Below, piece after piece: positions 38,074-62,582 of a stretch of DNA of 64,000 nt. Position 1 is the first letter of the stretch. Every line of letters begins with the position of its first letter. Both the position numbers and the translations under genes were made by a program. The stretch is taken from contig JBFMHR010000005.1 of assembly GCA_040751795.1 (NCBI GenBank), positions 74,282 through 138,281 of the forward strand, in the 5' to 3' direction. The notes beneath the pieces are model-generated. The model had not been told where the DNA came from. It made no database searches and saw nothing but the letters and a program-made list of their open reading frames with translations. The stretch is from Thermoplasmatota archaeon (lineage in GTDB: Archaea; Thermoplasmatota; Thermoplasmata; UBA10834).

Positions 38074-38147
38074 GGTGGTTTCGCCGCATCATTCAAGTAG
38101 TCATATTCATGAAGAAAGGACATGCATGGGTCTGCAAACACACACGT

Positions 38148-39095: not shown

Positions 39096-39106
39096 CCCTT
39101 AGTGCC

Positions 39107-40018: not shown

Positions 40019-40021
40019 GAG

Positions 40022-41160: not shown

Positions 41161-41238
41161 AATCTCACCTTCTGCGCGCCAAATGCGGCTCAAACGACAT
41201 TTGCATATCACCATACACTACGTTTGCTGTTCCGCTAA

Positions 41239-44100: not shown

Positions 44101-44101
44101 G

Positions 44102-45013
44102 TCAGCGTATTTTTCCAGCAAGACCCACAATGATCTTAGGGATGTGAATTGGCATTGCCATGGGGTCAAGCTTGAGCGCTTCGCATATTTCGTAGAATGC
44201 CTTCCTTCTGTTGCCAAGGCGTAGACACCCACCACCAATTTCAGCATGTATTCTCGCTATCTCTTCTCTGGATATCTCATTCTTGCACTCCTTCAACAGC
44301 CATTCTTTGAGCTTAACGCCGTCACTTAGCCAGCTGAGACCGTCTCGACTTACTGTATTTTGCCCATGCAGTCGATAGTATGCAAGTGGTTCCTCTAAGA
44401 AGTAGTACGAGTGCCTTCTTGCCAGACTAAGTTCGAACTTGTAGTCATTCAAGAACTTAAGTTCCTCATCATACATTACGCTCAATGCGCTTTCTCGCTT
44501 CAGTATTCGACTCGAGCCGAAGATGAAATTGCCTTTCAGAAGATCTTCGAAGATGCGCCCACTCTTCGGTTTGCCTTGCGAATTGTGAATGCGAGTGAAG
44601 GTTTGTCCAGTCAACTTGCCAGCTGCATCGATTATCTCGCCTTCTGACCACACAATCAACGTATCATCAGATTCGAGCACAGCGAGCTGCTTTTCGAGTT
44701 TGTCACTCTTCCAGACATCATCAGATGCAATGAACGCTAGAAATTCTCCGTCAGCGTTCTTCATGCCATCGTTGAGTGTTCTTGCTATGCCCAGGTTGTT
44801 GGTGTGAAACACAGCTCGAATCCTGTCGTCCCAGGCAACTGCCTGTTCAATCAACTCTCGGGATCCGTCCTGAGATCCATCGTCAACAATCAATAGCTCT
44901 AGACCACGAACACTTTGCGAGAGAACACTCTCTATTGCAGTTCGAATGTAGGGCAAGTGATTGTATGATGACATTATGACACTGACTCTAGGCAGGGTTC
45001 TCATCTCCATCAT
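44102..45013 (-). CDS. Glycosyltransferase family 2 (GT-A)
   Basis: VSVIMSSYNHLPYIRTAIESVLSQS and LLIVDDGSQDGS (DxD region). 303 aa. Confidence 0.8.
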   Translation of the reverse strand: MMEMRTLPRVSVIMSSYNHLPYIRTAIESVLSQSVRGLELLIVDDGSQDGSRELIEQAVAWDDRIRAVFHTNNLGIARTLNDGMKNADGEFLAFIASDDVWKSDKLEKQLAVLESDDTLIVWSEGEIIDAAGKLTGQTFTRIHNSQGKPKSGRIFEDLLKGNFIFGSSRILKRESALSVMYDEELKFLNDYKFELSLARRHSYYFLEEPLAYYRLHGQNTVSRDGLSWLSDGVKLKEWLLKECKNEISREEIARIHAEIGGGCLRLGNRRKAFYEICEALKLDPMAMPIHIPKIIVGLAGKIR

Positions 45014-45432
45014 GCATCATCTTTCGTGACCCGATCTTCTTTTAGTGAACGCTATTTGAGTATAGAAACCTCGCACAAGTGTCACAGACAACTGAGAATT
45101 GATATCTCTATTCAGGATTCAGTAGTTCGTGATCACCACCACTTTGAGCCAGCGGCACTTCTTTCAGAGGGACTTCGACATCCCTTATGAACTAGTACTC
45201 ACTCTCGAGGATGTACTGGCGCATGGCCAAGAACTTCGGGTGGGAGAGGAAATCATCGTGGGCCGTCCTCCCTCCTGGTCCCCTCCTCGCGGTGGGGAGG
45301 GTCGTCCACTTCCATTCCGCCCATGCATTCACGAGGGGTATCTTTCCTCTTCCCGTGCACTATCGCTAGCATTAAGAGCCGGATATCCTTCGCCTGGGGT
45401 ATCGGATGATGTCTGCTGTGAAGAACGCACGG

Positions 45433-45900
45433 TTAAGCTAGAGGCACTTGAACTCGATGCCCTAGCCGTCGACGAGACGGATGACATCCTTGATGACGGC
45501 CAGCTTCCCGTTCGAACTCTTGACGAACGCTAGCGCGGCCGTCCCCCCTCTTCCCCGAGAGGACCGTATAGGCGGTCGCATAGGCGTGGAACCAGGTGGT
45601 GCCCGGCTTCGGTCTACCTCTCACGACCTTGTCTTTCTTCCCCTTGGGTCTCCCGTGGTACGGGATGAGCATATTGTCGATGGCGATTTTTAGGAGGCGT
45701 TTCGGGAGGAAGCCGGCCGCCTGTTCCACCGAGAGACGGTTCGCGTGCTTGCGCAATAGTCTGAGCGTGGGGCTGCGAAGGCGGTATCGAATCACACCAT
45801 CGCGAGGAGAGGGTTCATGCTCCTGGCATTTCCTGCTCGTAGATATCTTACTGGACGCGGCGAGCGCGAGCTCGCTCGCCATGTCCATCGGGGAGTGCAT
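45433..45900 (-). pseudogene. GC-rich transposase-like fragment (GRPKG...GRPKPGTTW motif region), probably non-functional
   Basis: An isolated GC-rich patch inside low-GC DNA. The frame continues in another phase (…LAFVKSSNGKLAVIKDVIRLVDG). No intact domain. Identity uncertain. Confidence 0.25.
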
Positions 45901-46149
45901 TCATTGGAGCCGCCTGCCAAGAGACTCTGGGATTCAGAACACGGCTATCTTGATGATCTCCTCAGCGGAGACTCCCTGCCGGCGGTTCCGGAGGCAATAG
46001 TCATTTGCTACACAAGCTCATGCGCCTTCGGAGCCATCCAGGGGTCTGCCATCCCATCCTTGACTCTTGTTCACCAAACACTGGCACGGGAGAGATGGCT
46101 CCTCGTTGCTCCTGAGAGGACAATATTGTCAGCAGAAGCCATTTGCGTC

Positions 46150-46467
46150 CAGAACCGACTTTGCCAACTACTGAATCTAGGCAATGATATCTGGACGTTT
46201 CCACTGGCTCATCTCTATAATGATATGCACCCGCCATGCAATAGGTGTATGGAGGGATCCGTTGTTGAGGATGGGGCGGTGATCGGCTCAGGGGCAATCA
46301 TACTGCCGAAGGTTCACGCCGGTGAGGACGCCGTTGTGGCAGCGGATTCGATAGTGACCAAGGACGTCCATGGCAGCATGCTAGTAATGGGAGTTCCAGC
46401 AAGGGTTGTTGCGGAAGTGGGTGACGTCAGATGTGCTGTGGACAATGTTGCCAGACCGTACCCATAG
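46150..46467 (+). pseudogene. C-terminal fragment of a hexapeptide-repeat (LbH) O-acetyltransferase
   Basis: The C-terminal about 100 aa of track ORF 45817..46467 read GSVVEDGAVIGSGAIILPKVHAGEDAVVAADSIVTKDVHGSMLVMGVPARVV, typical of MAT/GAT-type acetyltransferase ends. The N-terminal part of the ORF has no LbH character. Confidence 0.4.
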
Positions 46468-46626
46468 AGGAATAGAGGAGTCTGGGTACGGTAGCTGCAG
46501 GATTCTTGCCTCTGGTTACAGGTAGCTAGCTATTGACATTGGAGAAACGCTGATGTAGCGGTGCTCATATACGCCGATTAGGTAACTGGTTTGCGAGAAG
46601 ATAGGAATCATTCGAGTTATGAAGAG

Positions 46627-47553
46627 ATGATTGAACAAGAAGCGGCGTTTTGGGCCGGCCAAGCCGAAGATGCTGCCATGAAAGGGTTCTCTCCTGATCT
46701 CGAGAAACCATTTGCGGCCACTACTGTCCAGGCTATTTGGGACGATTCTGAGCTCGATTTCATGATTAGGGGGAAATACATTGATAGGATTTTGGATTAT
46801 TGCTCAGGCAGACCACAACTTGATTGTCTGGAACTCTGTTGTGGGACAGGCATGCTTGCACTTGGCGTTTCAAGGCGAGGGGCAAGGGTAATCGGCATTG
46901 ACGTGTCACCACGAGTTATCGAAATCGCTGAGACGTATGCTCGAGACTCAGGCATCCCCCCTGAGAGATTGGAGTACCACGTCTGTGACCTTAACCGAGT
47001 GTCCTTGCCTGAAGAGAGGTTTGATGTCGTTTTCGCCTGGGATGGTCTTCATCATATAGCAGAGATCGAGCACCTCGTTAGTGAGGTCAGGAAGACTCTC
47101 AGAGATGGAGGGGTATTCGTCGTCCACGACCATGCGAAGGGTGATTCTAGGATAGGAGACATTGTGCTGCAGGGACTGGCGGCAATATTGGGTCTGATTG
47201 TTCCTACGGATTCTAGCTTCCTAGCTAAGCTAAAGATGGTCTTCAAACGCGCCTCTCCAATGACAGCCCCCACCTCTGTTGACAATCATAGGCTTCTTGA
47301 TTCCCCATTTGAGGATGTCTCAGGGGAGGGTATAGTAGAGAGTATTACCGAGAATTTCAGAATCCTGGAATTCGAGAGGTATCTCTCATTGCCCGGGACT
47401 CTATACGCTAGGGTCTGGCGGAACCCCAAGACCCGAACGCGGACTATCGGCGCACTTATGGCGTTTGATAGACTGCTATGTGGCTTACACATTCTTCATC
47501 CTGAGTACTTCTTCATCATGGCAAAGAAAGAGACTGTACATAGTGATGACTAG
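46627..47553 (+). CDS. Class I SAM-dependent methyltransferase
   Basis: Motif I LELCCGTGMLALG, then an acidic residue (IGIDVS) and motif-post-I/II patterns. ATG at 46627 (MIEQEAAFW). Confidence 0.75.
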   Translation: MIEQEAAFWAGQAEDAAMKGFSPDLEKPFAATTVQAIWDDSELDFMIRGKYIDRILDYCSGRPQLDCLELCCGTGMLALGVSRRGARVIGIDVSPRVIEIAETYARDSGIPPERLEYHVCDLNRVSLPEERFDVVFAWDGLHHIAEIEHLVSEVRKTLRDGGVFVVHDHAKGDSRIGDIVLQGLAAILGLIVPTDSSFLAKLKMVFKRASPMTAPTSVDNHRLLDSPFEDVSGEGIVESITENFRILEFERYLSLPGTLYARVWRNPKTRTRTIGALMAFDRLLCGLHILHPEYFFIMAKKETVHSDD

Positions 47554-47906
47554 ACACATCCCTCTCTCAAGGCAAAGCGGGGACACAGTTATCAGCGCGA
47601 AAGCGAACTCGCTAATGGCCAATTAGGCAAAAGTGAGAAGGTGATTCCCCGTTCGCATATCCGCGCGAAGGAATGGTCTGCGATTTGAGGAATGCCAGAG
47701 GCTGTGCATGAGAGTCACAGAGGAATTGGGCGAGATACATCGACCTGGGTATGTGCAGTCACTATCTGCCAAGGATCATGTTCCTCTGCCATTGATTCGA
47801 GATTAAGCACGAATGAGCTCATTTCCATCGATATCGCTGTGCTTCTCTCTGCAGCAGCGCGTTAGTATCATTGAAATATCGCCGATGGTAATATGCTGCT
47901 GCGACA

Positions 47907-49166
47907 ATGAAGATTGCCCAGATATCAATGATCAATGGCGCGATAACCGAAGGAAACGTGATGCGAGTTTCGGGACTCTCCCAGGGCCTTCATGACCTCG
48001 GACACTCAGTTCTAGTTGTCTGCAAGTTGAATTCGAAGAGACTGGTCGGTGGTTTTGAGAAGGCCGATGCTCCTCTTCTGAAGTCATTGGTTTGGCTATA
48101 TGGTCCGAGGTCTCCTGTTGAGACTGTGGCGAGCAGGAGTCCGTATGCGAGATTGGCGGCGTATAGACTTCTGTCGCCCTTACCCTATGCCAACATGAGG
48201 GTTACTGACACATGTTCCGTCTTGCACTGTCATCTTCTCGGAGTTGCCTCGCTAATGCTGAGAAAGAGGAGACAGGGGCAGAAGGTATTGCTCGACTTCC
48301 ATGGAATGCTGATGCTTACTGACACATCAGGTACCCCCATAGCTGATACGCGAGGTACCCCTGTGGACTCCCTTGATGATGAATCTCGGTTGAGAGCTCT
48401 CAAATGGCAATCTCAGGTATTCGAAGAAGTGGATGGAGTCTCTTTTGTAACCGCTGCTCTCCGTGATAAGATAACACCGTTGTATGACATCGATCCAGGA
48501 AAGACATATGTCATACCGGATGGAGTGAATTTCCGTCGAATATCTCGGGATTGGCAGAACAGCGATATCCTCAGATTGCGGCAATCATGGGGGAAACCAT
48601 CCGATGTCGTCGTCATGTATGTCGGAGCGCTGGATTCGCTCCATGGGGCATCATATCTCGAGAAGGTTATCCGCGAGTTGTTGGGGAATTCTAGGGTAAG
48701 CACTTCCGTGAGGGTTGTTTTGATTGGCGGAGGTGTTCTCTCGCATTTGTTTGCAGACCTCCAAAGAGGGTTTGGAGATCGATTCGTCCGCATTCGTCGC
48801 GTTTCCTATGAGATGTTGCCCACATATCTAGCAAGTGCTGATATACTCCTTGTGCCCCATGCGAGGAATATGCTAATGGAGAATATCGAATCTGGAAAAC
48901 TTCTCAACTATCTCGCCAGTGGAAAGCCCACGGTGGTGACGTCGCTCGCATCAGTCTCAGATTTCCTGGAGGACAATGTGTCATGCATCATGTGTCATCC
49001 GGATCATCCGTCTACTATGGTATCAGGAATCGAGCGCCTTGTAGATTCTCCTGAACTTAGACAGGCGATAGGCAAGCGGGGAGCTGAAGTCGTGGAGAGA
49101 GGACGTGATTGGTCATTTGTGGCCCAAGGAGCATTGCAGGTCTACCATGATTTGACCAGACCATAG
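47907..49166 (+). CDS. Glycosyltransferase family 4
   Basis: MKIAQIS...GLSQGLHDLGHSV N-terminus and a C-terminal nucleotide-sugar binding half with the GT4 pattern. Confidence 0.7.
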   Translation: MKIAQISMINGAITEGNVMRVSGLSQGLHDLGHSVLVVCKLNSKRLVGGFEKADAPLLKSLVWLYGPRSPVETVASRSPYARLAAYRLLSPLPYANMRVTDTCSVLHCHLLGVASLMLRKRRQGQKVLLDFHGMLMLTDTSGTPIADTRGTPVDSLDDESRLRALKWQSQVFEEVDGVSFVTAALRDKITPLYDIDPGKTYVIPDGVNFRRISRDWQNSDILRLRQSWGKPSDVVVMYVGALDSLHGASYLEKVIRELLGNSRVSTSVRVVLIGGGVLSHLFADLQRGFGDRFVRIRRVSYEMLPTYLASADILLVPHARNMLMENIESGKLLNYLASGKPTVVTSLASVSDFLEDNVSCIMCHPDHPSTMVSGIERLVDSPELRQAIGKRGAEVVERGRDWSFVAQGALQVYHDLTRP

Positions 49167-49337
49167 ATCTCATGCTTCCTGGTAGATTACGGTTCATATA
49201 CGGCGACGAATGGCTAGATGGGCGTCGGCTGCTCTGGAGTTGCCCAAATTCGATGAGTGAAGACGGGTCTCTAGTAATCAATTTCCTACCCATCTTCAAA
49301 TGAACAGATTCGTCTAAATACATGCATGTGATACTGA

Positions 49338-51098
49338 GTGCCTGCCTTTGCCGCAGTGCCATCAGTTTGGGTTACTATGGTGACTCTATCTAAGAAGACC
49401 GTGTTTCTTGCCCTTCTCGCACTTGTTGTTCTCTCATTAGCACTTCGTTATCCCCTTTTGGACCATGAGCGACAGCAATCAGACTCCTATTTCATACATG
49501 GTCTAGCGAACCTGATTGCCGTCAACGGCAGGGCAGAATGGACGATACACCCCCTCTCCTACTTCGGCTATTATCCGTTGTCATACCCTTCAGGAGCCCC
49601 GTTTCTGCTATCCGAATCCGCGATGATGGCTGGAATCCCTTTGGAGGCAGCGGTATTGATGATGGGCATGATTCTAGGCATTGTGCAATGCCTAGCATCG
49701 TTCTGCTTTCTGCGACTATTCATCGTGCGCCCTGAGTTTGTATTGCTCGGCACTTTCCTGTGCGTGGTCTCTTCTAGGTTAGTAGATGTGACCTATTGGA
49801 CGGCTACTGCACGAGGTCCATTCGCTGTCCTCATGCTGGTCACAATTGCCTTCTTAATTGAAGCAGGTAGGAGGGCAGATTTCAGATTGATGTCTGTGGG
49901 TTCATTGTTAGTGATATCCTGCGTGTCCTTGCACCACATGGCCATATTCCTCGTCTTATTCGCACTGGCACAGATAGTGGTTTCCCTAGGATATGAGCAC
50001 TTCAGCCATTATGGATACAAAGGCCGACTGTCTTTGCCCATGTACTATGGGATGATTGCTGGCGCAGTCATTCTCACCGGCTTCGGAATCTGGACCTATC
50101 TCGGGTCGAGAGCTATTAGCAGTCTCGGAAGCACGACGTGGTTCGACTTCACGCCTCGGTTTCTTTCGGTCATGGTCAACGCGCTGGCTGTCTACTCTAG
50201 CCAGATAGGGTTTATAGTCCCTCTTGCCTTCCTCGGGATCCCGTATTTGCTGCGTAAGCGCCAGGGGGATCTGAGGATGATGTTCCTACTCGCAGTTCTC
50301 ATCTTCTTCATTCCCTTCATCGGGTACCAGCTGTATGTAGCGATAATAATCGCTCCCTACCTCATTGCACTCGGCATCATCTGGCTCTATTCGTTCAGTC
50401 GTCAGAACAGATGGAGAAACCTGGCCGTTCCCCTGATTGTGATACTAGTCGCCTCCTCTCTTGTGCTCCCCCCATTGATGATTGACCGATGGAACGAGAA
50501 GGAATACGTAGAAGGGGACAAGGTCGTTGTGGACCCCGATGTGTTCAATATTGCGACCTACTGCGAGGTGAATTATGGATCTGATCCATCAATATCGAAC
50601 GCAGCAATCATGAAGGGATTGATAGGGACGATTGCCGGAGTCCCATTTTCAGGTCCAGGGCTATCGTCGCTGCTGAATGGCGACATCACACCGGAAGAGG
50701 TACGCTCTAGAATTGAACCCACGAGCGGATTTACCCCCGACTCTATGTATATATGGTTCAGGTATGAGGAGAGTCTCTTCGTTGGCTACTTCGAGGTGGG
50801 GTTGATGACGCAAGGGATTGAAGCCTTCTATAGCGCGAGTTATCTTCTGGATTTCGAGTCCCGCGAGTATCTCGTGAATCACTCTCGTCTGGTCGTGTAT
50901 GTTGACAACAACTGGCCTAGTAGCTACTCAACGATCTATGCGGATAGGCCCGCTGTCTTCCTGTCGGAACTCCAGAAGTCGCAGAGCGAGTCAGAATACT
51001 CCGTTGGATTCGGATCCATGGGCTTTGCGTCGTATATGACCTACGCAACCCATCGGTCATCAGTCTATATTGTGCAGTTGCCTCCTGCCTCCTGGTGA
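49338..51098 (+). CDS. Polytopic membrane protein (about 12 TM plus C-terminal soluble domain) with acidic first loop; candidate GT-C-like glycosyltransferase or glycan polymerase; paralog of 55521..57311
   Basis: The first extracytoplasmic loop carries LLDHERQQSDSYF and PLSYPSGAPF. These are shared with the second protein (FNNDGMTESRIAEDI; GLSYPSDAFY). No WWDYG (AglB/STT3) motif. Confidence 0.45.
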   Translation: MPAFAAVPSVWVTMVTLSKKTVFLALLALVVLSLALRYPLLDHERQQSDSYFIHGLANLIAVNGRAEWTIHPLSYFGYYPLSYPSGAPFLLSESAMMAGIPLEAAVLMMGMILGIVQCLASFCFLRLFIVRPEFVLLGTFLCVVSSRLVDVTYWTATARGPFAVLMLVTIAFLIEAGRRADFRLMSVGSLLVISCVSLHHMAIFLVLFALAQIVVSLGYEHFSHYGYKGRLSLPMYYGMIAGAVILTGFGIWTYLGSRAISSLGSTTWFDFTPRFLSVMVNALAVYSSQIGFIVPLAFLGIPYLLRKRQGDLRMMFLLAVLIFFIPFIGYQLYVAIIIAPYLIALGIIWLYSFSRQNRWRNLAVPLIVILVASSLVLPPLMIDRWNEKEYVEGDKVVVDPDVFNIATYCEVNYGSDPSISNAAIMKGLIGTIAGVPFSGPGLSSLLNGDITPEEVRSRIEPTSGFTPDSMYIWFRYEESLFVGYFEVGLMTQGIEAFYSASYLLDFESREYLVNHSRLVVYVDNNWPSSYSTIYADRPAVFLSELQKSQSESEYSVGFGSMGFASYMTYATHRSSVYIVQLPPASW

Positions 51099-51248
51099 CC
51101 GCACCCTCCTGAGCGGCGCAATTCTGTCCAACGACTCACAGGCCTATGCTATGACGGGAGAAGCATCTCTGATGTCCTTCTGTGAGAGGATATTCGCGAG
51201 CAGCAGGAACACTGCTACAGAGATTGCGCACCTCATCTTCGTTAGTCC

Positions 51249-52535
51249 TCATTGAATGCGTAATCGTTCGTAGAGCGTTATTGCGAACCAGAGTCTCCTT
51301 CTAGATGACACCCACATTCTAAAGCGGAGCATCCTAGCGGATAGACGATCGGCAGCACCGACGTCCGGAAGAGGGCGATGGTACTCTGGAACGGTCCTTC
51401 CCTTTCTTGCCAGGTAGCGAATCATGGCTGCTCTGCGCCTCTGCAAGTAGTCGATAGATTGTGATTCTTGGACATCCTCTTTGCTCGCTATTCTGATATC
51501 GACCATGCCAGATTGCGCCGCCCTCTCGATGAGCGATATTGCCGAGCCTGTCCTAGCTATGACCAGAGACGTCCCAGACCTATCACCAGAAAAACGGGGG
51601 AGCCATGCATCCATGAATGAAGCATCTGAGAGTTCTGCGGTCTTGTCAATGCATAATGTGCACCGTGGTGGAAAGAAGAACTTGTGAAAGATAAGTCCCC
51701 AGTATGATTTCGAGCCAAAAGGTATGGTCCTCCGGCTCCCATCGCGCAGTTGCAGGGAGAGGACCCCCGGCCACCCTCCTCCACGGTAGGAAATCTCGGC
51801 AACCATCTCCTTCGAAATCCCATTTCGTCTCAGAAGATATTCTGTGGCATGATGCGAGGGCGTGTGGTTGCATACGAGGCCGAAGATTAGGACAATCCGT
51901 TCCTTCAATTCTGGATAGACCTCCATAGCCTTGCATATTCCGTGAATGTGGCAAGGGAGACCAATTACTGCGTATCTGCCTGGATTGGCGAGCAGCTCTC
52001 GCAGTGCGGTGTTGGCTGACACCGGGCAGTATTTCGACCCCGCGGAAGAGAGTATATCCTCGCGAGTCCGAGCTAGAAATGTCGCAGGTTCAAGCGGAGA
52101 TGACTGATTCATCCCTGTGACTAGAGCTGCGTCGATGATTCCCGCATCTAATGCAAACACTAGAAGTGAAGTAGCAAGCCCACCAGATGATGATGATACT
52201 CGGATACCGATGTCTGCAGCATTGCCGGCGAACACCTCCTTGATACAGCCTGCATTGGAATCATCAGGTCGTTTCCCGAAGCGGGCAATATTCAGTCCAT
52301 CGAGATCGACAGAGTGCCCAGGACATGTTCTCAGGCACTTCCTGCAACTGACGCATATGCCATCTCTTACTGATGGGGTTTGTATGCCTAAGCGGTCATC
52401 AGTGCAAATTGCGATGGCACGAGTCTCACAGATTGATACGCATGTTCCACAGCCTGTGCAGAGTCCATGTTCGACCACGGACGAGATATTCCGCCATTGC
52501 GACACCGTTTCCACTTGAGTGTCACCGGCATACAA
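51249..52535 (-). CDS. Coenzyme F420 hydrogenase/dehydrogenase beta-subunit-like (FrhB/FdhB family) protein with N-terminal 2x[4Fe-4S] ferredoxin domain
   Basis: CTGCGTCVSICE and CVSCRKCLRTCP cluster motifs, then an FrhB-like flavin-binding body. Adjacent to a pyruvyl transferase, as in many bacterial polysaccharide loci. Confidence 0.65.
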   Translation of the reverse strand: MYAGDTQVETVSQWRNISSVVEHGLCTGCGTCVSICETRAIAICTDDRLGIQTPSVRDGICVSCRKCLRTCPGHSVDLDGLNIARFGKRPDDSNAGCIKEVFAGNAADIGIRVSSSSGGLATSLLVFALDAGIIDAALVTGMNQSSPLEPATFLARTREDILSSAGSKYCPVSANTALRELLANPGRYAVIGLPCHIHGICKAMEVYPELKERIVLIFGLVCNHTPSHHATEYLLRRNGISKEMVAEISYRGGGWPGVLSLQLRDGSRRTIPFGSKSYWGLIFHKFFFPPRCTLCIDKTAELSDASFMDAWLPRFSGDRSGTSLVIARTGSAISLIERAAQSGMVDIRIASKEDVQESQSIDYLQRRRAAMIRYLARKGRTVPEYHRPLPDVGAADRLSARMLRFRMWVSSRRRLWFAITLYERLRIQ

Positions 52536-52873
52536 TATCGCACTGGCTATTCAAACTCTCCGCCACTTGAGCCGCAGCGATAGGTCTGCTCATCGAGCTT
52601 GGATATGTTTGAAGACACAGATCACGAGCGGGAGAACTCAGGGAGTCTGCAATTGTCATTGGGTGTGCCCACCCCGCAACGTCAACCCCGCAGATTCGTT
52701 GTCTTCCCTGAGGCAGTTGTCGTAGGGCATTACGGTGAACCCCATCCCGCATGGTGGCTGCCGATTGACCATTGGCGCAATCTTGGCTGAGTGCCTATGG
52801 CAAGACCTGCATCAAACCATCAACAGAAGTCCGTTCGCAGTTGATGGAGCAGATACCTCAATCCTTCCTGTCC

Positions 52874-54145
52874 TCACATGTTCTTCTGCACGACGCGCTC
52901 TGAGATCAATTCTGCCGTTCTCCTTGCCAACGCCTGGATCTCCGGGATCCTATCCAGGAGTGTTCGTCTGATCTGCGTTCGTCTTTCCCATGCGTCTTCG
53001 ACTGTTTCCAGCAATCGCTCAGGGGGGTCATCCCAATTACGAACATACTGGTCCTGGCCTGCCATTGACATTATTCCCGGCGTCTTGTTGCTGTATGAGA
53101 TTGCCACCGTGGGGACATGCATCGTGAGTGCAGCAATGTTGGCGTGCATACGAGCACCGATGAAGAGGGTGCATAGTCCGATGATTCCTCGTATCACTTC
53201 TGGCTGATATGCACCTTCTATCACGAACACTCTTTCGCGATATTTGGATTTCTTTGCAGCGGCAACAGCGATGTCCCGATCATTCGGGTTCAGATTTGGG
53301 TCAGTGACATGAGGTATGAAGACAACATCAACATCGTGTTCCTCAATCATGTGATCTGCAAGCTCTGCGAGATTAAGCAGGTACTCCCCAGCTGCCACCC
53401 CTTCTCTTGAGCGAGAGAACCTGAAAAGGAGCTCGCTCGGTGCTATTCCGACAAGCGGGCGTCCGTTGTCCACCGGAATTCGCTCCATCTTCAGGGTTTC
53501 CCTGGCTTCGTTCTCCGAAATCGCCCCCAGGAGGAATGCGCCATCTGCAGTCATAAGCACTTCCTGTTTCACTCCAATCTGAATCAGATAGTTTCTGCTA
53601 ATCTCCTCTCGGACAATCAGCAAGTCCACTCTATCAAGAAAGAATCGTGCGATTCTCCTGGCGATTCCATTGCGGAAGGGACCGATTGACTGGGAGTGAA
53701 TGACTACCGGGACTCTTAGGATAATGCACCAGAAGAACGGGAGCCATGACCTGACGGAACGTACGACTCCAAAATCATCGGTTAGCCCGTCACCCGACAG
53801 ATTCACGACAACGTCTGATCTCTTGTATTCGCTCTTCCTCGTCTCTCCGCCAACTAGCTCAATCCTCAGACATCTCTCGAGGACTATCAGAATGGTTTCT
53901 GCGAATATCCTGATGTTGGATACATCATGAGGAATCCTGATGGCTAGTGCGGTCTCGAAGCGTCTGTCTCTTTCGGGACTATAGGAGATGAACGTGATCG
54001 CAGGGTTCTCGAATACTCTCCTAATCTCCATGATCGCGGACAGAACTATGGATGCCGTCCCTCGATTCCTCGAGAGTTCTGCCCCGACTAGCAAGAATCT
54101 CAGGCCAGTCATTGCTATTATCAGACTGGAGTGAATTGACTGCAC
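52874..54145 (-). CDS. Polysaccharide pyruvyl transferase (CsaB/WcaK family)
   Basis: 423 aa with the VVNLSGDGLTDDFG block and overall PS_pyruv_trans layout. Confidence 0.7.
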   Translation of the reverse strand: MQSIHSSLIIAMTGLRFLLVGAELSRNRGTASIVLSAIMEIRRVFENPAITFISYSPERDRRFETALAIRIPHDVSNIRIFAETILIVLERCLRIELVGGETRKSEYKRSDVVVNLSGDGLTDDFGVVRSVRSWLPFFWCIILRVPVVIHSQSIGPFRNGIARRIARFFLDRVDLLIVREEISRNYLIQIGVKQEVLMTADGAFLLGAISENEARETLKMERIPVDNGRPLVGIAPSELLFRFSRSREGVAAGEYLLNLAELADHMIEEHDVDVVFIPHVTDPNLNPNDRDIAVAAAKKSKYRERVFVIEGAYQPEVIRGIIGLCTLFIGARMHANIAALTMHVPTVAISYSNKTPGIMSMAGQDQYVRNWDDPPERLLETVEDAWERRTQIRRTLLDRIPEIQALARRTAELISERVVQKNM

Positions 54146-54534
54146 ATAAGCTTAACTGGACGCAATGCACCATCTCTGGATCTCATGCCGATTTGACTGG
54201 CCATAACCTTGTTAATCATGGGCGTGCTCGATTGGGATGGTCCCCGCTATGCATGTTTGATGCTCCTGCTCAAGTCACAGATACTAAACTCGCCGCTCAG
54301 AAGTGGATTGATGAGAACCCTGCCCAATCTGCACCTTCTTGTCTCTGCCCCGCGGTGAGCACATGGATTCAACGCCAGGTTTCATCCTTACCTGTCAATC
54401 CTGACACTCAGCGGTGCTTCATCCCCGATGTTACCGAGAACCCCAGGCAAATCCGATTCGGAGGCGCCTAGCACCATGGCGTGATCGCATCGCTTCATGA
54501 TAGGGGTCTGAAAACATAATTATACTTCAGCTTC

Positions 54535-55503
54535 ATGACGGAGAAGGTATCGATGGTCAACGTCCTAGCATTCATCGGGTCATTTGCGGTTGCCTTCTTG
54601 GTGACATTCATCATCATTCCTTGGTTGATACCCCAGTTGAAAGCTAGGGGAATTGTCGGGAAGGATCTGAACAAGCCTAGCCAACCAGAGATTGCTGAGA
54701 TGGGCGGAATTGCGGTCGTGATTGGCTTCTTTGCAGGAGTGAGCATACTCCTTGCCATGGATGATGTGACCAACAAGGAGGTCTTCAATGTCTCCCTCTC
54801 AGTCCTCATGGGGTCTGCATTCATCGGCATGATAGACGATCTATTTGAGTTGAGACAGAGGCAGAAAGCCCTTTTCCCTTTTCTGCTGGCTTTGCCATTT
54901 GGTGCATCTCTCAATCCCGTGGTAAGCCTCCCTTTCATTGGAGAGGTGCACTTCGGAATCGCTATGATTATCGCTGCACCATTTGCCATCACATGTGCAG
55001 CGAACGCAGGCAACATGCTCGAAGGGTTCAACGGTCTAGGCACAGGACTTGGAATCATCATGTCTTCCACGCTGATTCTGCTAGCCTTTGAACATGATAG
55101 ACTTGACGGGCTCTATCTACTCATCCCCTTGCTGGGAACCCTGCTCGCCTTTCTATGGTTCAATAAGTATCCGTCGCGAATATTCCCAGGCGACACCCTC
55201 ATGCTGTTCATCGGCACGACTCTAGCCGTCTCTGGAATGCTCTCTGGCTTACATTTCCAGACCGGTTTCATCTTCATGCCCATGATAATCGAGTTCTTTC
55301 TGAAATGGCGTGGGCGTTTCAAGGCTGAGAACTATGCATCTGGACTGAAGGGTGGTTATCTGGAATATCACGGCAGGATTGAATCCATCACACACTTATT
55401 CATGAAGCATGCTAGGGTTACCGAAAGATCTTTGACAATCGCCATCTGGGCTATCGAGGCGGTCTTCTGCGCCTTGGTGGTTGTCGGGGATTCGGTCATC
55501 TGA
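54535..55503 (+). CDS. Polyprenyl(dolichyl)-phosphate GlcNAc/HexNAc-1-phosphate transferase (MraY/WecA/AglH family, initiating phosphoglycosyltransferase)
   Basis: 10-11 TM helices. DDxxD (GMIDDLFEL), NAGNMLEGFNGLGTGLG (N..N..DG.DGL-type motif) and PGDTLMLFIG. Confidence 0.75.
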   Translation: MTEKVSMVNVLAFIGSFAVAFLVTFIIIPWLIPQLKARGIVGKDLNKPSQPEIAEMGGIAVVIGFFAGVSILLAMDDVTNKEVFNVSLSVLMGSAFIGMIDDLFELRQRQKALFPFLLALPFGASLNPVVSLPFIGEVHFGIAMIIAAPFAITCAANAGNMLEGFNGLGTGLGIIMSSTLILLAFEHDRLDGLYLLIPLLGTLLAFLWFNKYPSRIFPGDTLMLFIGTTLAVSGMLSGLHFQTGFIFMPMIIEFFLKWRGRFKAENYASGLKGGYLEYHGRIESITHLFMKHARVTERSLTIAIWAIEAVFCALVVVGDSVI

Positions 55504-55520
55504 GCAGATTGCAGGAATTC

Positions 55521-57311
55521 TCAAGATTGAAAGGCAATAATCCTATTGTCGGAGGGTCCTCCGATATACACAACATTCGAATCATCTAGAACGGTATCCA
55601 CCTCATTGCTGTCGAGAAATATCCGTCCTTGAGGGTAGTTGTTCACACCTAGAGCGCTCCATTCATCAAGCAGCAAGTTGATGCTTTCGGGGCTCAGCTG
55701 TTCAGATTCAGCGAGCCGACGCGGCAGACTGGGATCCTGCGCGTAATCATACAGAGCGCGCGCAATATAGGAGATACGCTCGTCAGACCGAATATTCATA
55801 TCAAGGCCGCAAGTATCATGTGCCCATGTGATGGCATCGAATTCGTACAATTCTGTATCATGCCTGACTCCCGTGAGCGTATCAGTTGCGTAACTGAATG
55901 GAAATGACACTATCAGCACCGCAGAGAGGATGATGACAAGTGCCTTTCTCATTCGTGGTCTTCGATATACAGCTGCACACGCAGCGCCAACACCTAATGC
56001 CAACGGTATCTCAGAGAAGTCATATGTGCGGTAGATGAGCGCATGCCCCATCTGCGCCGAATCCTCTAGAATTGCCAGAAGAAGGAACATGAAGATGGGC
56101 AGCAGGAATCCAAGCGGGACAGACCTGTATCTTGAGTGTGACTCAATTAGGTACTCCATTCCGTACCAGCCAACACCAACGACTATCGCCATACAGAATG
56201 CTAGGATCATCACGTAGTGCGGGGCAGCTTGTTCGTATTCGAACATGGGGTTAATGTAATCAATGATGAAGAGGGAGAACACAAGCGTCGCCGGGATGGG
56301 GGCGAAGGACACGCGGTATCTCGATTCCTTATTCAGGTAAAGGTAAGTTATTGCGACTATGACCGCAAGAGAGCCGCCAATCATTGCGATCTCCTGAACG
56401 CTATCGGCGTAGGCTAGACGGTTCAATGAGTTCATGGAGTAGTAGGCATAGGTGACAAGTGTCGTGGCAATCATTGCCACCAGATCACGCACATGACGGG
56501 TTCTCAGTACCTGCGCCTTGGCAGCAAAGGCAAGGGAGACCAGAGTCAGATACCATAGCGCCAAGTATACGATTGCCGCAATGAGGTGGTGGACAATTGG
56601 GAGGACGAGTAGAATAGTCATGCTGAGCAGGAACATCCTGATATCGCTACGGCTGATGTATAGATAGATTATGAATGCGATGAGGGCTACGCCGAGCGAC
56701 TCCTTCCAGGCTGACCCGGATAGAAACACGAACGAGCCAAACAAGCCGAGTACAAAGGATGATAACATTGCAGCAATGGCGTTCGAAGAGACTTTGAGTG
56801 CAACTGCATAGATTCCCACAACGGTAAGCACTGAAAATGCCGCAACCAGAAACTGGGCCACCCAGAATGGCGAAGTCCCTAACATTAGTGCTGCAAATGC
56901 CAGAATAAGGTTGAATGCAGGTGTTATCACGCTGTGAGAATCTGCGTAGAATGCATCAGAGGGATATGAGAGGCCGCCGCTCGAAATGATGTCCTCGGCA
57001 ATCCGACTCTCAGTCATGCCATCATTATTGAAGGGGAATGGAGAAATTGCGAGTGGCACCAATCGAGTAGATAGGGCCATGAACACCAGCGACAGTATAA
57101 TGGCACGCCGCATTCCTCCAAATCCTCTTATGGACTTCCCGATGCTAAGGATTCTCGCAATGAGTGGTTGTCTCGAGTTGTTCTGATGCACAGTTGGAGA
57201 TTCATGTTCCGCTTCATTAAAGGGCTGTCCTTCCTGCCTGATAGGATTTAAGGAAGTGCGGTTGGCCACCTTTGGGTCTGAGTCCAATCCGGGGGATTTC
57301 ATGATATGCAT
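55521..57311 (-). CDS. Polytopic membrane protein (about 13 TM plus C-terminal soluble domain), paralog of 49338..51098; candidate GT-C-like glycosyltransferase
   Basis: Shares first-loop motifs with its paralog (FNNDGMTESRIAEDI, GLSYPSDAFY). Possible alternative start at 57113 (MRRAIILSLVF). Confidence 0.45.
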   Translation of the reverse strand: MHIMKSPGLDSDPKVANRTSLNPIRQEGQPFNEAEHESPTVHQNNSRQPLIARILSIGKSIRGFGGMRRAIILSLVFMALSTRLVPLAISPFPFNNDGMTESRIAEDIISSGGLSYPSDAFYADSHSVITPAFNLILAFAALMLGTSPFWVAQFLVAAFSVLTVVGIYAVALKVSSNAIAAMLSSFVLGLFGSFVFLSGSAWKESLGVALIAFIIYLYISRSDIRMFLLSMTILLVLPIVHHLIAAIVYLALWYLTLVSLAFAAKAQVLRTRHVRDLVAMIATTLVTYAYYSMNSLNRLAYADSVQEIAMIGGSLAVIVAITYLYLNKESRYRVSFAPIPATLVFSLFIIDYINPMFEYEQAAPHYVMILAFCMAIVVGVGWYGMEYLIESHSRYRSVPLGFLLPIFMFLLLAILEDSAQMGHALIYRTYDFSEIPLALGVGAACAAVYRRPRMRKALVIILSAVLIVSFPFSYATDTLTGVRHDTELYEFDAITWAHDTCGLDMNIRSDERISYIARALYDYAQDPSLPRRLAESEQLSPESINLLLDEWSALGVNNYPQGRIFLDSNEVDTVLDDSNVVYIGGPSDNRIIAFQS

Positions 57312-57860
57312 GTCATTTCGACCTCGAAATGTCTATCTACGCGGGACTCAATAGTCAGATTTCCAATATCGAACTCCACACAATGCATCTCATCCGGCCT
57401 CATCCGATGTCGCATCTGGAAATCTCTACCTGGTCTTATCGCATCGTCTGGCTGCTGCAGCTCTTTGGTTCATGATATCCCATACAATGCTATGTCTCGG
57501 TTTGCACCGCATGCGGTTTGGATTACTCATGCATCACCGATGTTGAATCGCCAGATGAACGAAGCCGTTCTATATATTCGTTGGCTGCACATTGCGGTGG
57601 GGAGAGGCATGAAGACTACTGAGCCACTCGCCATGGATCCGGATGGCTGTCCAGCTGCGGCTCGAGTACTATGTGAGGTTTCAACGACTGCAAGTGCCAG
57701 AACCTGCCACGCGGTCTGCTGTGGTATGCTAGACAAGACAATGCCCCTCACCTGCCACCTAGAGATACCAAGATATATTGGGATACCCACTCATGCCAAT
57801 CAGATCGGCCATCATGTCATCTCAATTGGCGCAATGGCCGATACTCATGAGTGATGACCA

Positions 57861-59033
57861 ATGTCAGTGCGGCTAATAAGAGTGGTAATCTTCCACAATC
57901 TGCCAACATCATACAGACTCCAGTGGTTCCAGCACATTCTCCGAGACCCCGACCTCGACGTTAGGATATTCCTTACTGGACGACCCAGGTCGAATCGTCC
58001 GTATTGGGTCGATGCTCCGGAATTCCGAGATGGGCGGGTTACAGCCCTTCGCGGACTGGGCTTCCCGCTCAAAGGCCTAGACAATGACAGGTACAATATC
58101 AATCCCGGACTCTTGAGAGTCCTCGATGGGCGCCCAGATGTAGTCATGCTGTTCGGATACGCTGAGCCGACCAACCTCGCGGTCGCAATGCTTTGTCGAC
58201 TGAGAGGGATTCCTTACATACTGTCTGCCGAAGTGTCAGATGTCTGGGGCCAGTCTCTGACTGGAAGGATAAGCATGCCTCTTGTCAAGCGAGTAGTCAG
58301 GAACGCAGCTGGTCTAGCTCCGGCTAGCACGACGTGTGCTCGGTTCTTCGAGAGTCTTGGCGGAAATCGTGAGTCTATGTCGATTATTCCATGTGTTCCC
58401 GACGTTGAACCTCTCAGACGTGCGAGGGAATCGCTAGGATTAGATGCATCGATTATCAAGGATCGTTTGAATCTGAAGGGGATGTCCATCGTTCTGTTCG
58501 TTGGGCGATTGCACGACTACAAAGGGGTGCGCGAGGCAATCGAGGCGCTCGGAATAGTAAGGCGATCAAGACCTGACGTCGTGATGGTGATTGTGGGGAG
58601 CGGACCTTTGGGGAGTTATGTCGAGGAAATGAGCAGACAGCTGGCGCCTAACCTCATGTTCCTCGGAACTGTCGATGACGCTACTCTTCGGGACTTGTAC
58701 TTGGCATCGGATATACACATCATGCCTTCATGGCATGAGGCCTTTGGCGTCGTCTGTGCTGAAGCGCTCGGGTATGGAGTGCCATCAATAGTCACGCGAA
58801 CCTCAGGATGCAGCGATTTGGTGACCGATGGGGAGAATGGATACATCATCAATCCTGGAGATGCTCAGGAACTCGCCCATGCGATTATCGTGTCCCTCTC
58901 TGACCCGATTGCCCTCGACCGTATGAAGAAACTTGCTTTTTCGAAGTCAGAAGACTTTTCGATGAGCATCATTATGGCCAGGCTCAAGAGACTTATCCAT
59001 GAAGTGGCAGAGCGTTCACGAGTATCAAGATGA
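57861..59033 (+). CDS. Glycosyltransferase family 4
   Basis: C-terminal EAFGVVCAEALGYGVPSIVTRTSG (E-x7-E) signature. Confidence 0.75.
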   Translation: MSVRLIRVVIFHNLPTSYRLQWFQHILRDPDLDVRIFLTGRPRSNRPYWVDAPEFRDGRVTALRGLGFPLKGLDNDRYNINPGLLRVLDGRPDVVMLFGYAEPTNLAVAMLCRLRGIPYILSAEVSDVWGQSLTGRISMPLVKRVVRNAAGLAPASTTCARFFESLGGNRESMSIIPCVPDVEPLRRARESLGLDASIIKDRLNLKGMSIVLFVGRLHDYKGVREAIEALGIVRRSRPDVVMVIVGSGPLGSYVEEMSRQLAPNLMFLGTVDDATLRDLYLASDIHIMPSWHEAFGVVCAEALGYGVPSIVTRTSGCSDLVTDGENGYIINPGDAQELAHAIIVSLSDPIALDRMKKLAFSKSEDFSMSIIMARLKRLIHEVAERSRVSR

Positions 59034-59373
59034 CACTCAGCGAACGGTCAATTGAATTCTAGGGCGCGACTCATGATTCTCTCAAATGAGATATCGAGAC
59101 CTCCAATCGCAGGCGAGTTCTGAATCTCAACTCACCATCGCGCGTTAGTGGGGCGGCGCGTCTCGACTCAGCAGTCCCATTGGCTGCCTCTTTCCGCGAA
59201 CCACCGATTAGTGTGATGGAGACATGAAGTCCAAGCTTACGCCCTTCTGGAGGATTCTGCAGGGCAGGGCGAGGGAAAGACATATCTGTGCCGTTTGGCT
59301 ATTGCATCTTGCTGCCAATCAATAGGCACCGCTGAGGGATCGCTGGCTATTCATTAATCGAGGCTGTTGGAAG

Positions 59374-60654
59374 ATGTCGGATGCGGGAAATGGAACTGCG
59401 AATGTCATCAAAGATGCCTATGTCGAAGCCAGTAAGGAGACTCGCACGAGCGACTTGCCCACAGTCTACTTCCTGGGCGGCCACCATCCGTCAAACGAGC
59501 CATTCATACGATCTCCCCCTTCGAATGTGAGACTGTGTTCAAGGGTGACTGCGAAGGAATTCGAGGAATTCGGTAGGCTCAAACAGTATAGTGGCATGTG
59601 GCCGGTAATGAAGAAGACAAATGATGCTCTCTACAGATCCATTGGCATGCCGCGCCTTCTTCCTGTATTCGGCAGATACGACCTCGTGCACACGAATGGC
59701 TCAGTGATACCTTTGTGTCCCGGCCCATGGGTTGCCAGCATAGAGAACCCTTCAGCATTCTATGGATTCGATGAGAGGTGGCATGAGATTCCGCGTATGA
59801 GGAAACGGCTTGCATCATTCTTGATATCGGAGAGATGCAGGGCAATAATGCCATATTCAGAGGCATCAAAGAGGTACCTGATGATGGGGCTAGCTGACTG
59901 GAAAGAGACCCTCGAACTCAAGACCGAAGTCATTCCCCTAGCGATTGATAAACGCCTCATAAGGAAGAAACCTGAGGACTTGAAGGCTAGGGATGTATCT
60001 GAGAAGATGCGATTCCTCTTCGTTGGCAATCACTTCTTCGACAAAGGCGGACGGGAAGTCTTGAGAGCTTTCCGCAACATTCGTGATTATCACGACTCTG
60101 AACTCACAATCGTCACTTCCGCGCCACCGCACCACTCCAAGGAGTTCCAGGAGTACATACCTAAGATCAAGGCCGAGAAGGATGTAAGATTCTATCATAC
60201 TGGTATTCCAAGGTCTGAGCTAATGAAGCTCTATGACTCATCGCATGTGTTTGCGTTCCCATCATATATGGATCAAGTCCCGTTCGTATTCCTTGAAGCT
60301 ATGGCGGCAGGGTTGCCTCTGATAGGCTCCAACTCCTACGCGATGCCAGAGATGTCAATCGATGGCTCTAATGGCTTCGTTGTTGAGAGTCCTTGGGTTG
60401 CATTTCCTAAATCAGAGTTGAGAACTGTGCGCCATCTCGTCGCCTATCGCTCTGCAGTACTCGAGGAACGTAATTTCGACGGAGTTGTCGAGAACCTGAT
60501 TGATAAGATGAAGTTCCTGATTGACCACGAAGATACAAGGATGATGTTCGCCAGGGAGTCACTTGAGATGGTGATTAATGGCAGATACTCTTTGGGTTGC
60601 AGGAACAAGGCGTTGTCTGCCGTATACTCTAGGAGTCTGCCGAGAATTCGATGA
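59374..60654 (+). CDS. Glycosyltransferase family 4-like
   Basis: C-terminal PFVFLEAMAAGLPLIGSNSYAMPE signature. The N-terminal half is divergent. Confidence 0.6.
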   Translation: MSDAGNGTANVIKDAYVEASKETRTSDLPTVYFLGGHHPSNEPFIRSPPSNVRLCSRVTAKEFEEFGRLKQYSGMWPVMKKTNDALYRSIGMPRLLPVFGRYDLVHTNGSVIPLCPGPWVASIENPSAFYGFDERWHEIPRMRKRLASFLISERCRAIMPYSEASKRYLMMGLADWKETLELKTEVIPLAIDKRLIRKKPEDLKARDVSEKMRFLFVGNHFFDKGGREVLRAFRNIRDYHDSELTIVTSAPPHHSKEFQEYIPKIKAEKDVRFYHTGIPRSELMKLYDSSHVFAFPSYMDQVPFVFLEAMAAGLPLIGSNSYAMPEMSIDGSNGFVVESPWVAFPKSELRTVRHLVAYRSAVLEERNFDGVVENLIDKMKFLIDHEDTRMMFARESLEMVINGRYSLGCRNKALSAVYSRSLPRIR

Positions 60655-60981
60655 TAGTTTCATAGAGCGGGGCAGCCGATTGACGATTCTGGATTCATAA
60701 TCATCCACCAGAAGGGCCTGGTCATAGATATTGAACCCCAGTGTCCATCCCGAGCATATATCATTTGAACTCGACTTCGATTCGAACCACCCCGTTGCCC
60801 ATTCTCCGGTGTTGTACAGAAGTGGACGGACTTATGTGGCCAACGCTCGGCCGGGAGGAGGTTCCCACAGACTCTGTTGGGACTTGAACACAGAGGCCAT
60901 TTTTCCCACGCGATTCACCCAACCCGGTCTATTAATGGAGAGGATTATTATCTTCGATGCCTCTCCAAGCTTGGCTTCGAC

Positions 60982-61962
60982 ATGATTATCTCTAGGACTC
61001 CTTTGAGGGTCAGCCTCGCTGGCGGAGGCACGGATATGGCCGATTACTACCGCTCAGGTTTCGGGGCGGTCACTGCGTCCGCAATCAAGAAGTACATGTA
61101 TGTGACAGTGAACAAGAGGTTCGAGGACAACATCCGTGTCAGTTACTCCAAGACTGAGATCGTTGCTACCCTTGATGCGCTCGAGCACGGGATTGTCAGA
61201 GAGTGCCTCAGGAAAGTGGGTATAAGGAGCGGAATCGAGGTTACAACAATAGCAGACATCCCCTCGAAGGGCACAGGCCTGGGCTCGTCCTCCGCGCTTG
61301 CAGTGGGACTCCTGAATGCTCTATATGCCTTCAAAGGGTATCGAGCCTCTCCGAAGAAGCTCGCCGAGGAGGCGTGCGAGATCGAGATTGAGCAGCTGCA
61401 TGAGCCAATCGGCAAGCAGGATCAATATATGGCTGCCTATGGAGGGCTTCAGCACTTCAGGTTCAATGCGGATGAGACCGTACTTATAGACCCTGTCGTG
61501 TGTCCTGCGAAGACTAAGCGGGATATTGAGCAGCACCTGATGTTGTTCTTCACTGGCCGAAGCAGGAACGCTAGGGATATTCTGACAGCCCAGAAGAGCA
61601 ACGCAGGCAAGAAGAAGGAGACGCTCGACATCATGCGCGACCAGGCTGTCAGCCTCTTCCAGGACCTTGTCTCACTCCAGGTCGGCCGGATAGGGGAGGT
61701 CCTCAGGGAGGGGTGGAACCTGAAGAAGTCCCTGGCCGAAGGCATCTCGGACAAGGAGATAGATGCACTCATGGAGAAGGCGATGACTGCGGGAGCAGTC
61801 GGTGGCAAGATCACAGGGGCTGGGGGAGGAGGATTCATGGTGCTCTTCGTTCCTCCTGAGCGGCAATGGGGCGTGAGGAACGCACTCGTGGACCTCAAGG
61901 AGGTAGAATTCAAGATTGAACCTCAGGGTTCACGGATAATCTATGTCGGAGATGAGATGTGA
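60982..61962 (+). CDS. GHMP-family sugar kinase, D-glycero-D-manno-heptose-7-phosphate kinase (HddA)-like
   Basis: MIISRTPLRVSLAGGGTD N-terminus, GHMP motif PSKGTGLGSSSALAV, and C-terminal KITGAGGGGF. Confidence 0.75.
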   Translation: MIISRTPLRVSLAGGGTDMADYYRSGFGAVTASAIKKYMYVTVNKRFEDNIRVSYSKTEIVATLDALEHGIVRECLRKVGIRSGIEVTTIADIPSKGTGLGSSSALAVGLLNALYAFKGYRASPKKLAEEACEIEIEQLHEPIGKQDQYMAAYGGLQHFRFNADETVLIDPVVCPAKTKRDIEQHLMLFFTGRSRNARDILTAQKSNAGKKKETLDIMRDQAVSLFQDLVSLQVGRIGEVLREGWNLKKSLAEGISDKEIDALMEKAMTAGAVGGKITGAGGGGFMVLFVPPERQWGVRNALVDLKEVEFKIEPQGSRIIYVGDEM

Positions 61963-62555: not shown

Positions 62556-62582
62556 GGACCTCCGAGATCGGAATGAGATACA

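Follow-up and report, generated by a model that had tools for sequence, protein, structure and literature searches.

To our knowledge, AglB is the sole protein-glycan transferase known in archaea. With STT3 and PglB it belongs to the oligosaccharyltransferases (OSTs; GT66, PF02516), whose GT-C fold class is already well established. Here, we analyze two genes, A and B, in a 64,000-nucleotide stretch of the genome of a Thermoplasmatota archaeon (GTDB lineage Archaea; Thermoplasmatota; Thermoplasmata; UBA10834; GenBank assembly GCA_040751795.1, contig JBFMHR010000005.1, positions 74,282 to 138,281 of the forward strand), referred to below as the window. The A and B families are new, with no Pfam, NCBIfam, or literature record, and their products very probably have a GT-C, OST-like fold. 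What appears to be new, as far as structure models can tell, is an OST-like architecture without the WWDYG motif, present in two diverged copies and tied to an archaeosortase. NCBIfam includes models for an STT3 associated with archaeosortase A and for an O-glycosylation ligase associated with exosortase A, and in these systems, as predicted for our locus, the gene for a membrane enzyme that transfers glycan is linked in the genome to one for a sorting transpeptidase; A and B differ in matching no NCBIfam model at an E value of ≤1, and the archaeosortase here is ArtC-like but below the cutoff of the archaeosortase C model. A precedent for transfer outside the N-X-S/T sequon is TfpW of Pseudomonas aeruginosa, reported to be a GT-C enzyme that glycosylates protein hydroxyls (10.1101/2020.04.19.049825). 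TfpW is a pilin O-oligosaccharyltransferase that is bacterial and specific for D-arabinofuranose. Our findings bear on the unidentified O-glycosylation machinery of archaea (PMC8241124) and on glycosylation that is independent of AglB (PMC6098224).

Both open reading frames (ORFs) are real, conserved genes, and hydropathy together with the secondary structure of AlphaFold2 (AF2) models supports the view of a first-pass annotation that both encode polytopic membrane proteins with a soluble C-terminal domain. That annotation gave each protein 12 to 13 transmembrane (TM) helices and a domain of 150 to 200 amino acids (aa). From hydropathy, positive-inside charges, and AF2 helices, B fits the helix count (about 13) with a smaller domain of about 118 aa, and A fits the domain size (about 200 aa) with fewer helices, about 11. 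The features of protein A are as follows.

49338..51098, plus strand: protein A, predicted GT-C-fold membrane protein, 586 aa from the GTG at 49338
49446..49484, plus strand: end of TM1 into the first external loop (EL1), R37-Y-P...H43...D49, with D49 at 49482..49484
49551..49595, plus strand: first-loop motif PLSYFGYYPLSYPSG, residues 72-86, from the family alignment
49932..49937, plus strand: H199-H200, between TM5 and TM6 at their outer end, with H199 invariant throughout the A and B families
50487..50495, plus strand: RWN motif just ahead of the C-terminal domain
50496..51095, plus strand: external C-terminal alpha/beta domain, residues 387-586, from the secondary structure of the AF2 model
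50595..50600, plus strand: S420-N421, with N421 at least 90% conserved

Those of protein B are as follows.

55521..57311, minus strand: protein B, predicted GT-C-fold membrane protein, 596 aa
57009..57035, minus strand: first-loop motif P93-F-N-N-D97-G-M-T-E101, with D97 at 57021..57023
56586..56591, minus strand: H241-H242, invariant in the B family and aligned to H199-H200 of A by hhalign and MAFFT
56019..56033, minus strand: Y427-R428-T-Y-D431, inside the penultimate membrane helix, with Y427, R428, and D431 invariant in the B family
55842..55871, minus strand: G481-V-R-H-D-T-x-x-Y-E490, just outside the membrane, invariant
55776..55787, minus strand: S509-D-E-R512, invariant
55524..55877, minus strand: external C-terminal domain, residues 479-596

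Homologues of protein A begin at M14, and the ATG at 49377 is probably the true start. Residues 1 to 66 of B show no conservation and are modeled with a predicted local distance difference test score (pLDDT) below 50, so M67 (57113) is a possible true start. In NCBI both are "hypothetical protein" (AB1793_08135 for A and AB1793_08160 for B). The deposited AB1793_08135 is just 386 aa long, the C-terminal 66% of the A ORF, with a start near M201 by profile coordinates, and hence is without TM1 to TM5, the conserved Asp, and H199. The annotation of A is therefore truncated and omits the predicted catalytic half.

The fold assignment derives from AF2 models built from the A and B family alignments (28 to 29 sequences), with a pLDDT of 79.2 and a predicted template modeling score of 0.76 for A and values of 79.9 and 0.81 for B. 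OSTs were the best structural matches of both proteins. The match scores (aligned lengths in parentheses) were as follows.

STT3B: A 21.7 (418), B 18.8 (394)
ALG12: A 19.0, B 17.5
AfAglB: A 18.8 (402), B 18.3 (400)
Pmt4: A 18.7, B 18.3
PglB: A 16.7 (415), B 18.1 (409)

About 400 residues align with OSTs, compared to about 300 to 325 with protein O-mannosyltransferases (PMTs; GT39), and in a Foldseek search with B the first 10 hits were OST chains (E values of 1.6e-7 to 4.6e-5), with ALG12, DPY19, AftD, ALG9, and ArnT ranked below them. In the predicted models, the membrane cores of A and B are superposable on solved GT-C enzymes, and the C-terminal domain of each matches the "central core" unit of OSTs. 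This ranking and the structural matches suggest that the whole architecture, not just the membrane core, is OST-like, consisting in the models of a cytoplasmic N terminus, 11 (A) or 13 (B) TM helices, an Asp in EL1, and an external domain like the AglB central core unit. Past the last TM helix, both models run in the order strand, helix, strand, conserved motif, and helix, which is the order that places WWDYG in OSTs. From this order of secondary structure, we infer that S420-N421 of A and S509-D-E-R512 of B occupy the WWDYG position.

The motif itself is missing. The pattern W[WF]D[YWFN]G was absent from A, from B, from all six frames of the window, and from 25 related loci, which bears out the first-pass annotation on this point. 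In its place, B has the invariant PFNNDGxTE, GVRHDTQxYE, and SDER, and A has the invariant RYP..H..D and RWN and the near-invariant SYPSG. In the conserved columns of the A and B family alignments, neither a DxxKxxx(M/I) nor an MxxIxxx(I/V/W) pattern stands out. The proteins differ from STT3, AglB, and PglB in having no DK/MI motif recognizable in these alignments, as well as no PF02516 match and no sequence match to solved OSTs. Further differences are the 11 rather than 13 TM helices of A and the short TM9-TM10 loop of B. The likeness to these enzymes lies in the Asp that starts the first external-loop helix and in the location within a glycan-assembly cluster that has an initiating transferase and a flippase. 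D49 sits at the N terminus of the EL1 helix of A (residues 48 to 63) and D97 at that of B, and hhalign pairs the two; D49 is a candidate catalytic or metal-binding residue, and D97 is a candidate catalytic one. With respect to the two DXD-type motifs of OSTs, the first acidic site is a single Asp in A and B. Nor is there an adjacent D-E at the conserved Asp of either protein that would resemble the loop-1 Asp-Glu pair of PMTs, from which A and B also differ in having no MIR domain and a different C-terminal domain. Presumably they differ as well from AglS, the enzyme that uses dolichyl phosphate (Dol-P)-mannose. In B, P93, N95, N96, D97, and E101 are invariant within the family. In A, the invariant first-loop residues are S74, G77, P80, S82, Y83, and P84, of which S74 and G77 are also kept in a more distant set, and residues 69 to 84 have a pLDDT below 50. 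D150 of A (in "VD") is not conserved among distant members, and its counterpart in B is Phe. For Y427-R428-T-Y-D431 of B, we can at most infer a role in phosphate binding; Y427 aligns with Y333 of A, a residue that is invariant across both families.

The first-pass annotation took A and B for paralogues with shared first-loop motifs. Close paralogy is rejected, as BLASTP between the two is not significant (E value of 0.56; identity of about 12%), with the sole match at that level spanning H199-H200 of A. Remote homology does hold at the level of family profiles: hhalign gives a probability of 96.5% and an E value of 9.9e-10 over 290 columns of the N-terminal membrane core (A 20-352 and B 66-384). 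A control with the reversed B profile reached only 0.03 over 42 columns, indicating that the signal is more than membrane-protein composition. Similarity is weak over the later membrane region (E value of 4.7e-4), and hhalign finds none between the sequences of the C-terminal domains (E value of 0.54). By these profile comparisons, A and B are remote homologues that diverged anciently. Residues common to both families (A/B numbering) are R37/R83, P39/P86, D49/D97, W154/W202, H199/H241, G300, and Y333/Y427. R37, P39, and D49 show conservation of 90% or more in a 57-sequence alignment of both families, and the R, P, D, W, H, and G of this set are also kept in 60 more distant superfamily members. 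The motifs on which the annotation had relied fared less well. Its D-x-E pair is [ED]-H-E, confined to the A family and with only the His conserved, and B has D97-x3-E101. Its [PG]LSYPS[GD]A[PF] motif is degenerate in B, where the family reads [LMV]-x-[YF]-P-x-[DG]-[AS] opposite the near-invariant SYPSG of the A family, and we reject LSYPS as a meaningful motif of the pair, since some 5-mer in common with A arises in 43% of shuffles of B, no more than chance. The reading of A and B as GT-C-fold enzymes other than canonical AglB/STT3, which would use lipid-linked donors and may be novel oligosaccharyl- or glycosyltransferases for the island glycan, is nonetheless supported by the superfamily-wide external-loop Asp, the structural matches, and the lack of any transporter family, yet on grounds that are largely not those first offered (D-x-E, LSYPS, and close paralogy).

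Searched against 5.8 billion sequences, A and B each found their own small family of 27 to 28 cluster representatives, none with a name other than "hypothetical protein" and almost all from metagenomes. Exhaustive HMMER searching with the merged profile retrieved 2698 representatives at an E value of ≤1e-3 and 432 at ≤1e-30, and a third round of word-indexed searching, started from the merged alignment, gained only one protein. By sequence comparison, A and B belong to a sizeable, undescribed superfamily centered on Thermoplasmatota, whose few named members are Thermoplasmata-type archaea; all 20 matches of B in GTDB species genomes were in uncultured Thermoplasmatota. Neither protein gave a meaningful match when scanned directly against Pfam and NCBIfam, and PF02516 matched neither of the two nor any of 117 relatives. 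The only sequence-level links to described families run through relatives and not through A or B. DUF6541 (PF20176) is matched by 4 of 28 A-family members (best E value of 1.1e-6) and 5 of 60 distant relatives (best E value of 5.2e-10), with no match at ≤1 from A or B and none from the B family, and by these profile matches it is a related family, not that of A and B. A few relatives weakly match PTPS_related (PF10131), GT-C_AftD (PF11847), or PMT_2 (PF13231; one A relative at 2.5e-5 and one distant relative at 3.6e-3), with no match from A, B, or any B-family member. The literature searched turned up no paper that mentions DUF6541 and none on the A and B families. A transporter is rejected, because the Pfam and NCBIfam scans assigned no transporter family to A, B, or their relatives; the label "MFS transporter" that NCBI gives to one relative appears to be a misannotation, as nothing else supports it.

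Mapping of the family hidden Markov models and the window proteins onto the 25 related loci (numbered with the prefix L) reveals a conserved cassette of uncultured Thermoplasmatota. It comprises, in this order, an ArtC-like archaeosortase, A, and B, together with a radical-SAM/SPASM protein and an AglH-like initiating transferase, framing variable low-GC sugar genes. In the window, the GC fraction is 0.64 to 0.70 over most of the first 30 kb and about 0.50 from 32 kb on, and the core genes lie dispersed in this low-GC island at 31.5, 32.8, 49.3, 54.5, and 55.5 kb. The members of the island other than A and B are as follows.

31550..32623, plus strand: ArtC-like archaeosortase at the left edge of the island (PF09721, E value of 5e-12)
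32770..33768, minus strand: radical SAM/SPASM protein, cassette member (PF04055 and PF13186)
41239..42771, minus strand: Wzx/AglR-type flippase candidate of the Polysacc_synt family (PF13440, E value of 2.9e-12; PF01943, E value of 4.2e-10)
54535..55503, plus strand: AglH/WecA-type polyprenyl-phosphate sugar-1-phosphate transferase, the initiating enzyme (PF00953, E value of 5e-29)
33850..63996: whole span of the variable glycan-building genes, from Pfam matches

The archaeosortase scores 80 bits against Archaeosortase C (TIGR03762), under the cutoff of 100, and 52 bits against the exo/archaeosortase signature TIGR04178. In nine loci its gene immediately precedes A, both being on the same strand. 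A adjoins B in six loci and lies within 10 kb of it in 14 informative places (13 loci and the window), and a divergent A-like subfamily substitutes in three more. B is convergent with the PF00953 gene, within about 40 bp, in seven loci (L001, L004 to L008, and L019) and in the window, and a PF00953 gene is found within 10 kb in nine further loci. In the window the gap is 18 bp and A is two genes further away, so the initiating enzyme does stand between A and B, as first described, while immediate flanking applies to B alone. Radical-SAM/SPASM orthologues (E values of 1e-100 to 1e-121) are present in eight loci (L001, L007, L009, L010, L014, L018, L022, and L025), and the flippase candidate recurs in L005 and L019. 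No Dol-P-sugar synthase is conserved in the cassette. Gene content between the cassette genes varies among loci; the chromosomal position of the cassette itself seems fixed. Surface-glycan loci of Thermoplasmatota appear, then, to pair fixed machinery with swappable sugar genes, as O-antigen and capsule loci do.

Three further observations concern these loci. At its left border, the island shares synteny with a distant relative, with an MFS transporter gene (minus strand), the archaeosortase, and A in the same arrangement (window 30203..32623; L002 7521..9954). At the other border, an ABC ATPase gene adjoins the PF00953 gene in L002, L004, and L005. The divergent A-like proteins form a third subfamily of 618 to 621 aa, scoring 176 to 185 bits against the A profile (L005 4951..6810, L006 4951..6813, and L008 3350..5203), and their genes lie upstream of B in these loci, which have no typical A gene.

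The explanation that we consider probable, if narrowly so, is that A and B are OST-like transferases of the outer face that pass the lipid-linked island glycan to a non-sequon acceptor, the donor and acceptor both being putative. In such a scheme, the PF00953 enzyme would prime dolichyl phosphate, the GT4 and GT2 glycosyltransferases and modifying enzymes of the island would assemble the glycan on the cytoplasmic face, and the Wzx-like protein would flip it to the outside. There, A and/or B would move the lipid-diphosphate-linked glycan en bloc to an acceptor other than N-X-S/T, a transfer for which we propose a role for D49/D97 and the invariant His. A and B may form a heteromer or serve different acceptors. 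A non-sequon acceptor is suggested because WWDYG is absent and other strongly conserved external motifs stand in its place. A diphosphate-linked donor, to which we tentatively give a little less than even weight, is favored over Dol-P-monosaccharides by the fixed pairing of B with the diphosphate-forming PF00953 gene, by the absence of a Dol-P-sugar synthase among the conserved cassette genes, and by the OST-type external domain. The acceptor would most plausibly be a surface protein handled by the archaeosortase, with which A and B might act in partnership, and this part of the scheme is doubtful. More speculative again, and in our estimate unlikely, is that A and B form the catalytic core of an AglB-independent, archaeosortase-coupled surface-modification system with a replaced sequon pocket. 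Such a system might modify Ser/Thr or other side chains, as an archaeal O-oligosaccharyltransferase, or, together with the archaeosortase, join processed proteins to a glycolipid in the manner of the glycosylphosphatidylinositol (GPI) transamidase.

Several points weigh against an OST-like role in glycan transfer. The fold is a prediction from shallow alignments, with low confidence for the first loop of A and for parts of its C-terminal domain. The family profiles had zero matches at an E value of ≤10 among all PDB sequences, and hhalign of the two profiles against PglB (a sequence that agrees with 3rce and 5ogl) was not significant, with E values of 0.23 and 0.061; the best local alignment of the B profile, likewise not significant and at most suggestive, lies in TM1-EL1 and pairs NND97G with TND56G of PglB. 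The sequence links of the superfamily are to DUF6541, PTPS_related, GT-C_AftD, and PMT_2 and never to STT3, and NCBI calls one relative "glycosyltransferase family 39." The TM9-TM10 loop of B, at about 10 residues by AF2 helices and hydropathy, is unlike the long EL5 of OSTs, where the TIXE/SVSE Glu lies, and the structural scores for PMT and ALG enzymes are nearly as high as those for OSTs. The search for WWDYG covers the window and the 25 loci, and a canonical AglB may lie elsewhere in the genome. Finally, two scans of the window and loci for C-terminal sorting signals, either PEF/PGF-like or any C-terminal TM helix with a basic tail, detected no archaeosortase substrates near the genes.

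The strongest alternative is that A and B are single-sugar GT-C enzymes of the PMT, AglS, ALG, or ArnT type. Working at the outer face with Dol-P-monosaccharides as donors, they would place branch or terminal sugars on the flipped glycan, or else modify protein directly. The weak Pfam matches to GT-C families other than STT3, the family 39 label, and the close PMT and ALG scores all favor it, as do the GT2 genes of some islands. The GT2 of our window shows no GtrB-like C-terminal TM helices when its sequence is judged by eye, and the cassette keeps a PF00953 gene without a conserved Dol-P-sugar synthase. Together with the match of the C-terminal domain to the OST core unit, the longer alignments with OSTs, and the 10 leading OST hits of B, this makes single-sugar transfer unlikely in our view. 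It is improbable that the two proteins complete a Wzx/Wzy-like pathway, one polymerizing the glycan in the role of Wzy and the other acting as the ligase. Two conserved, adjacent, and diverged GT-C genes would suit two separate steps, and the island has a Wzx-like flippase with no Wzy_C or O-antigen-polymerase family detected among the island proteins scanned; but A and B themselves match neither the Wzy_C profile nor a WaaL/SEDS-like fold, a single B relative does so marginally (E value of 0.07), and there is no sign that the glycan is a repeat-unit polymer. Known polymerases, moreover, belong to a different fold class. Least probable is that A and B are noncatalytic or lipid-presenting GT-C-fold partners of the archaeosortase that, like PIGU/GAB1 in the GPI transamidase, help attach a lipid or glycolipid to the processed C terminus, for although the archaeosortase gene abuts A in nine loci and archaeosortase A exchanges a C-terminal signal for a lipid anchor (PMC6098224), the invariant residues include the first-loop Asp expected of a working GT-C enzyme and numerous polar positions outside the membrane, the external domain is of the OST type, and OST matches beat those to PIGU.

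As predicted OST-like transferases, A and B are concrete, clonable candidates for a new route of glycan attachment, OST-shaped, with another acceptor pocket, and encoded beside a protein-sorting transpeptidase. The variable genes of the island that would supply the glycan, all assigned by Pfam, are as follows.

33850-35112, 35140-36333, 47907-49166, 57861-59033, and 59374-60654: five GT4-type glycosyltransferases
36949-38073: DegT aminotransferase
38148-39095 and 40022-40705: acyltransferases
44102-45013: GT2
46591-47553: methyltransferase
51249-52535 and 52874-54145: FrhB-like protein paired with a pyruvyl transferase
60877-63996: sugar-nucleotide genes

Outside the island, the high-GC part of the window encodes possible secreted or surface proteins, namely, an MG2-domain protein (14056..16455; 799 aa), a subtilisin-like protease with a plastocyanin-like C-terminal region (22131..24341; 736 aa), and a Kelch-repeat protein (26538..27992; 484 aa), none with a C-terminal sorting signal in our scans. 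A second radical SAM/SPASM gene (24428..25363) lies in this region within a dip in GC (0.548 for 24 to 26 kb). Within the island, the 303-aa product of 39107..40018 has no Pfam match and weakly resembles the NCBIfam beta-1,2-mannobiose phosphorylase model at an E value of 7.6e-10, far under its cutoff. The roughly 1.5 kb that separate the GT2 and methyltransferase genes (45013..46590) contain nothing but overlapping ORFs on both strands; one of these (45817..46467) has a C-terminal end that by eye is hexapeptide-acyltransferase-like, and the region may represent a decayed gene or an insertion remnant. The pair formed by the FrhB/FdhB-like iron-sulfur protein and the polysaccharide pyruvyl transferase occurs in three loci (window 51249..54145, L004 7133..9722, and L017 16461..19032). 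At the right end, 60877..63996 encodes a GHMP kinase, a SIS-domain isomerase, a HAD phosphatase, and a nucleotidyl transferase in succession, the last on the minus strand, and these four genes resemble what we take to be the pathway to nucleotide-activated heptose, suggesting heptose in the glycan.

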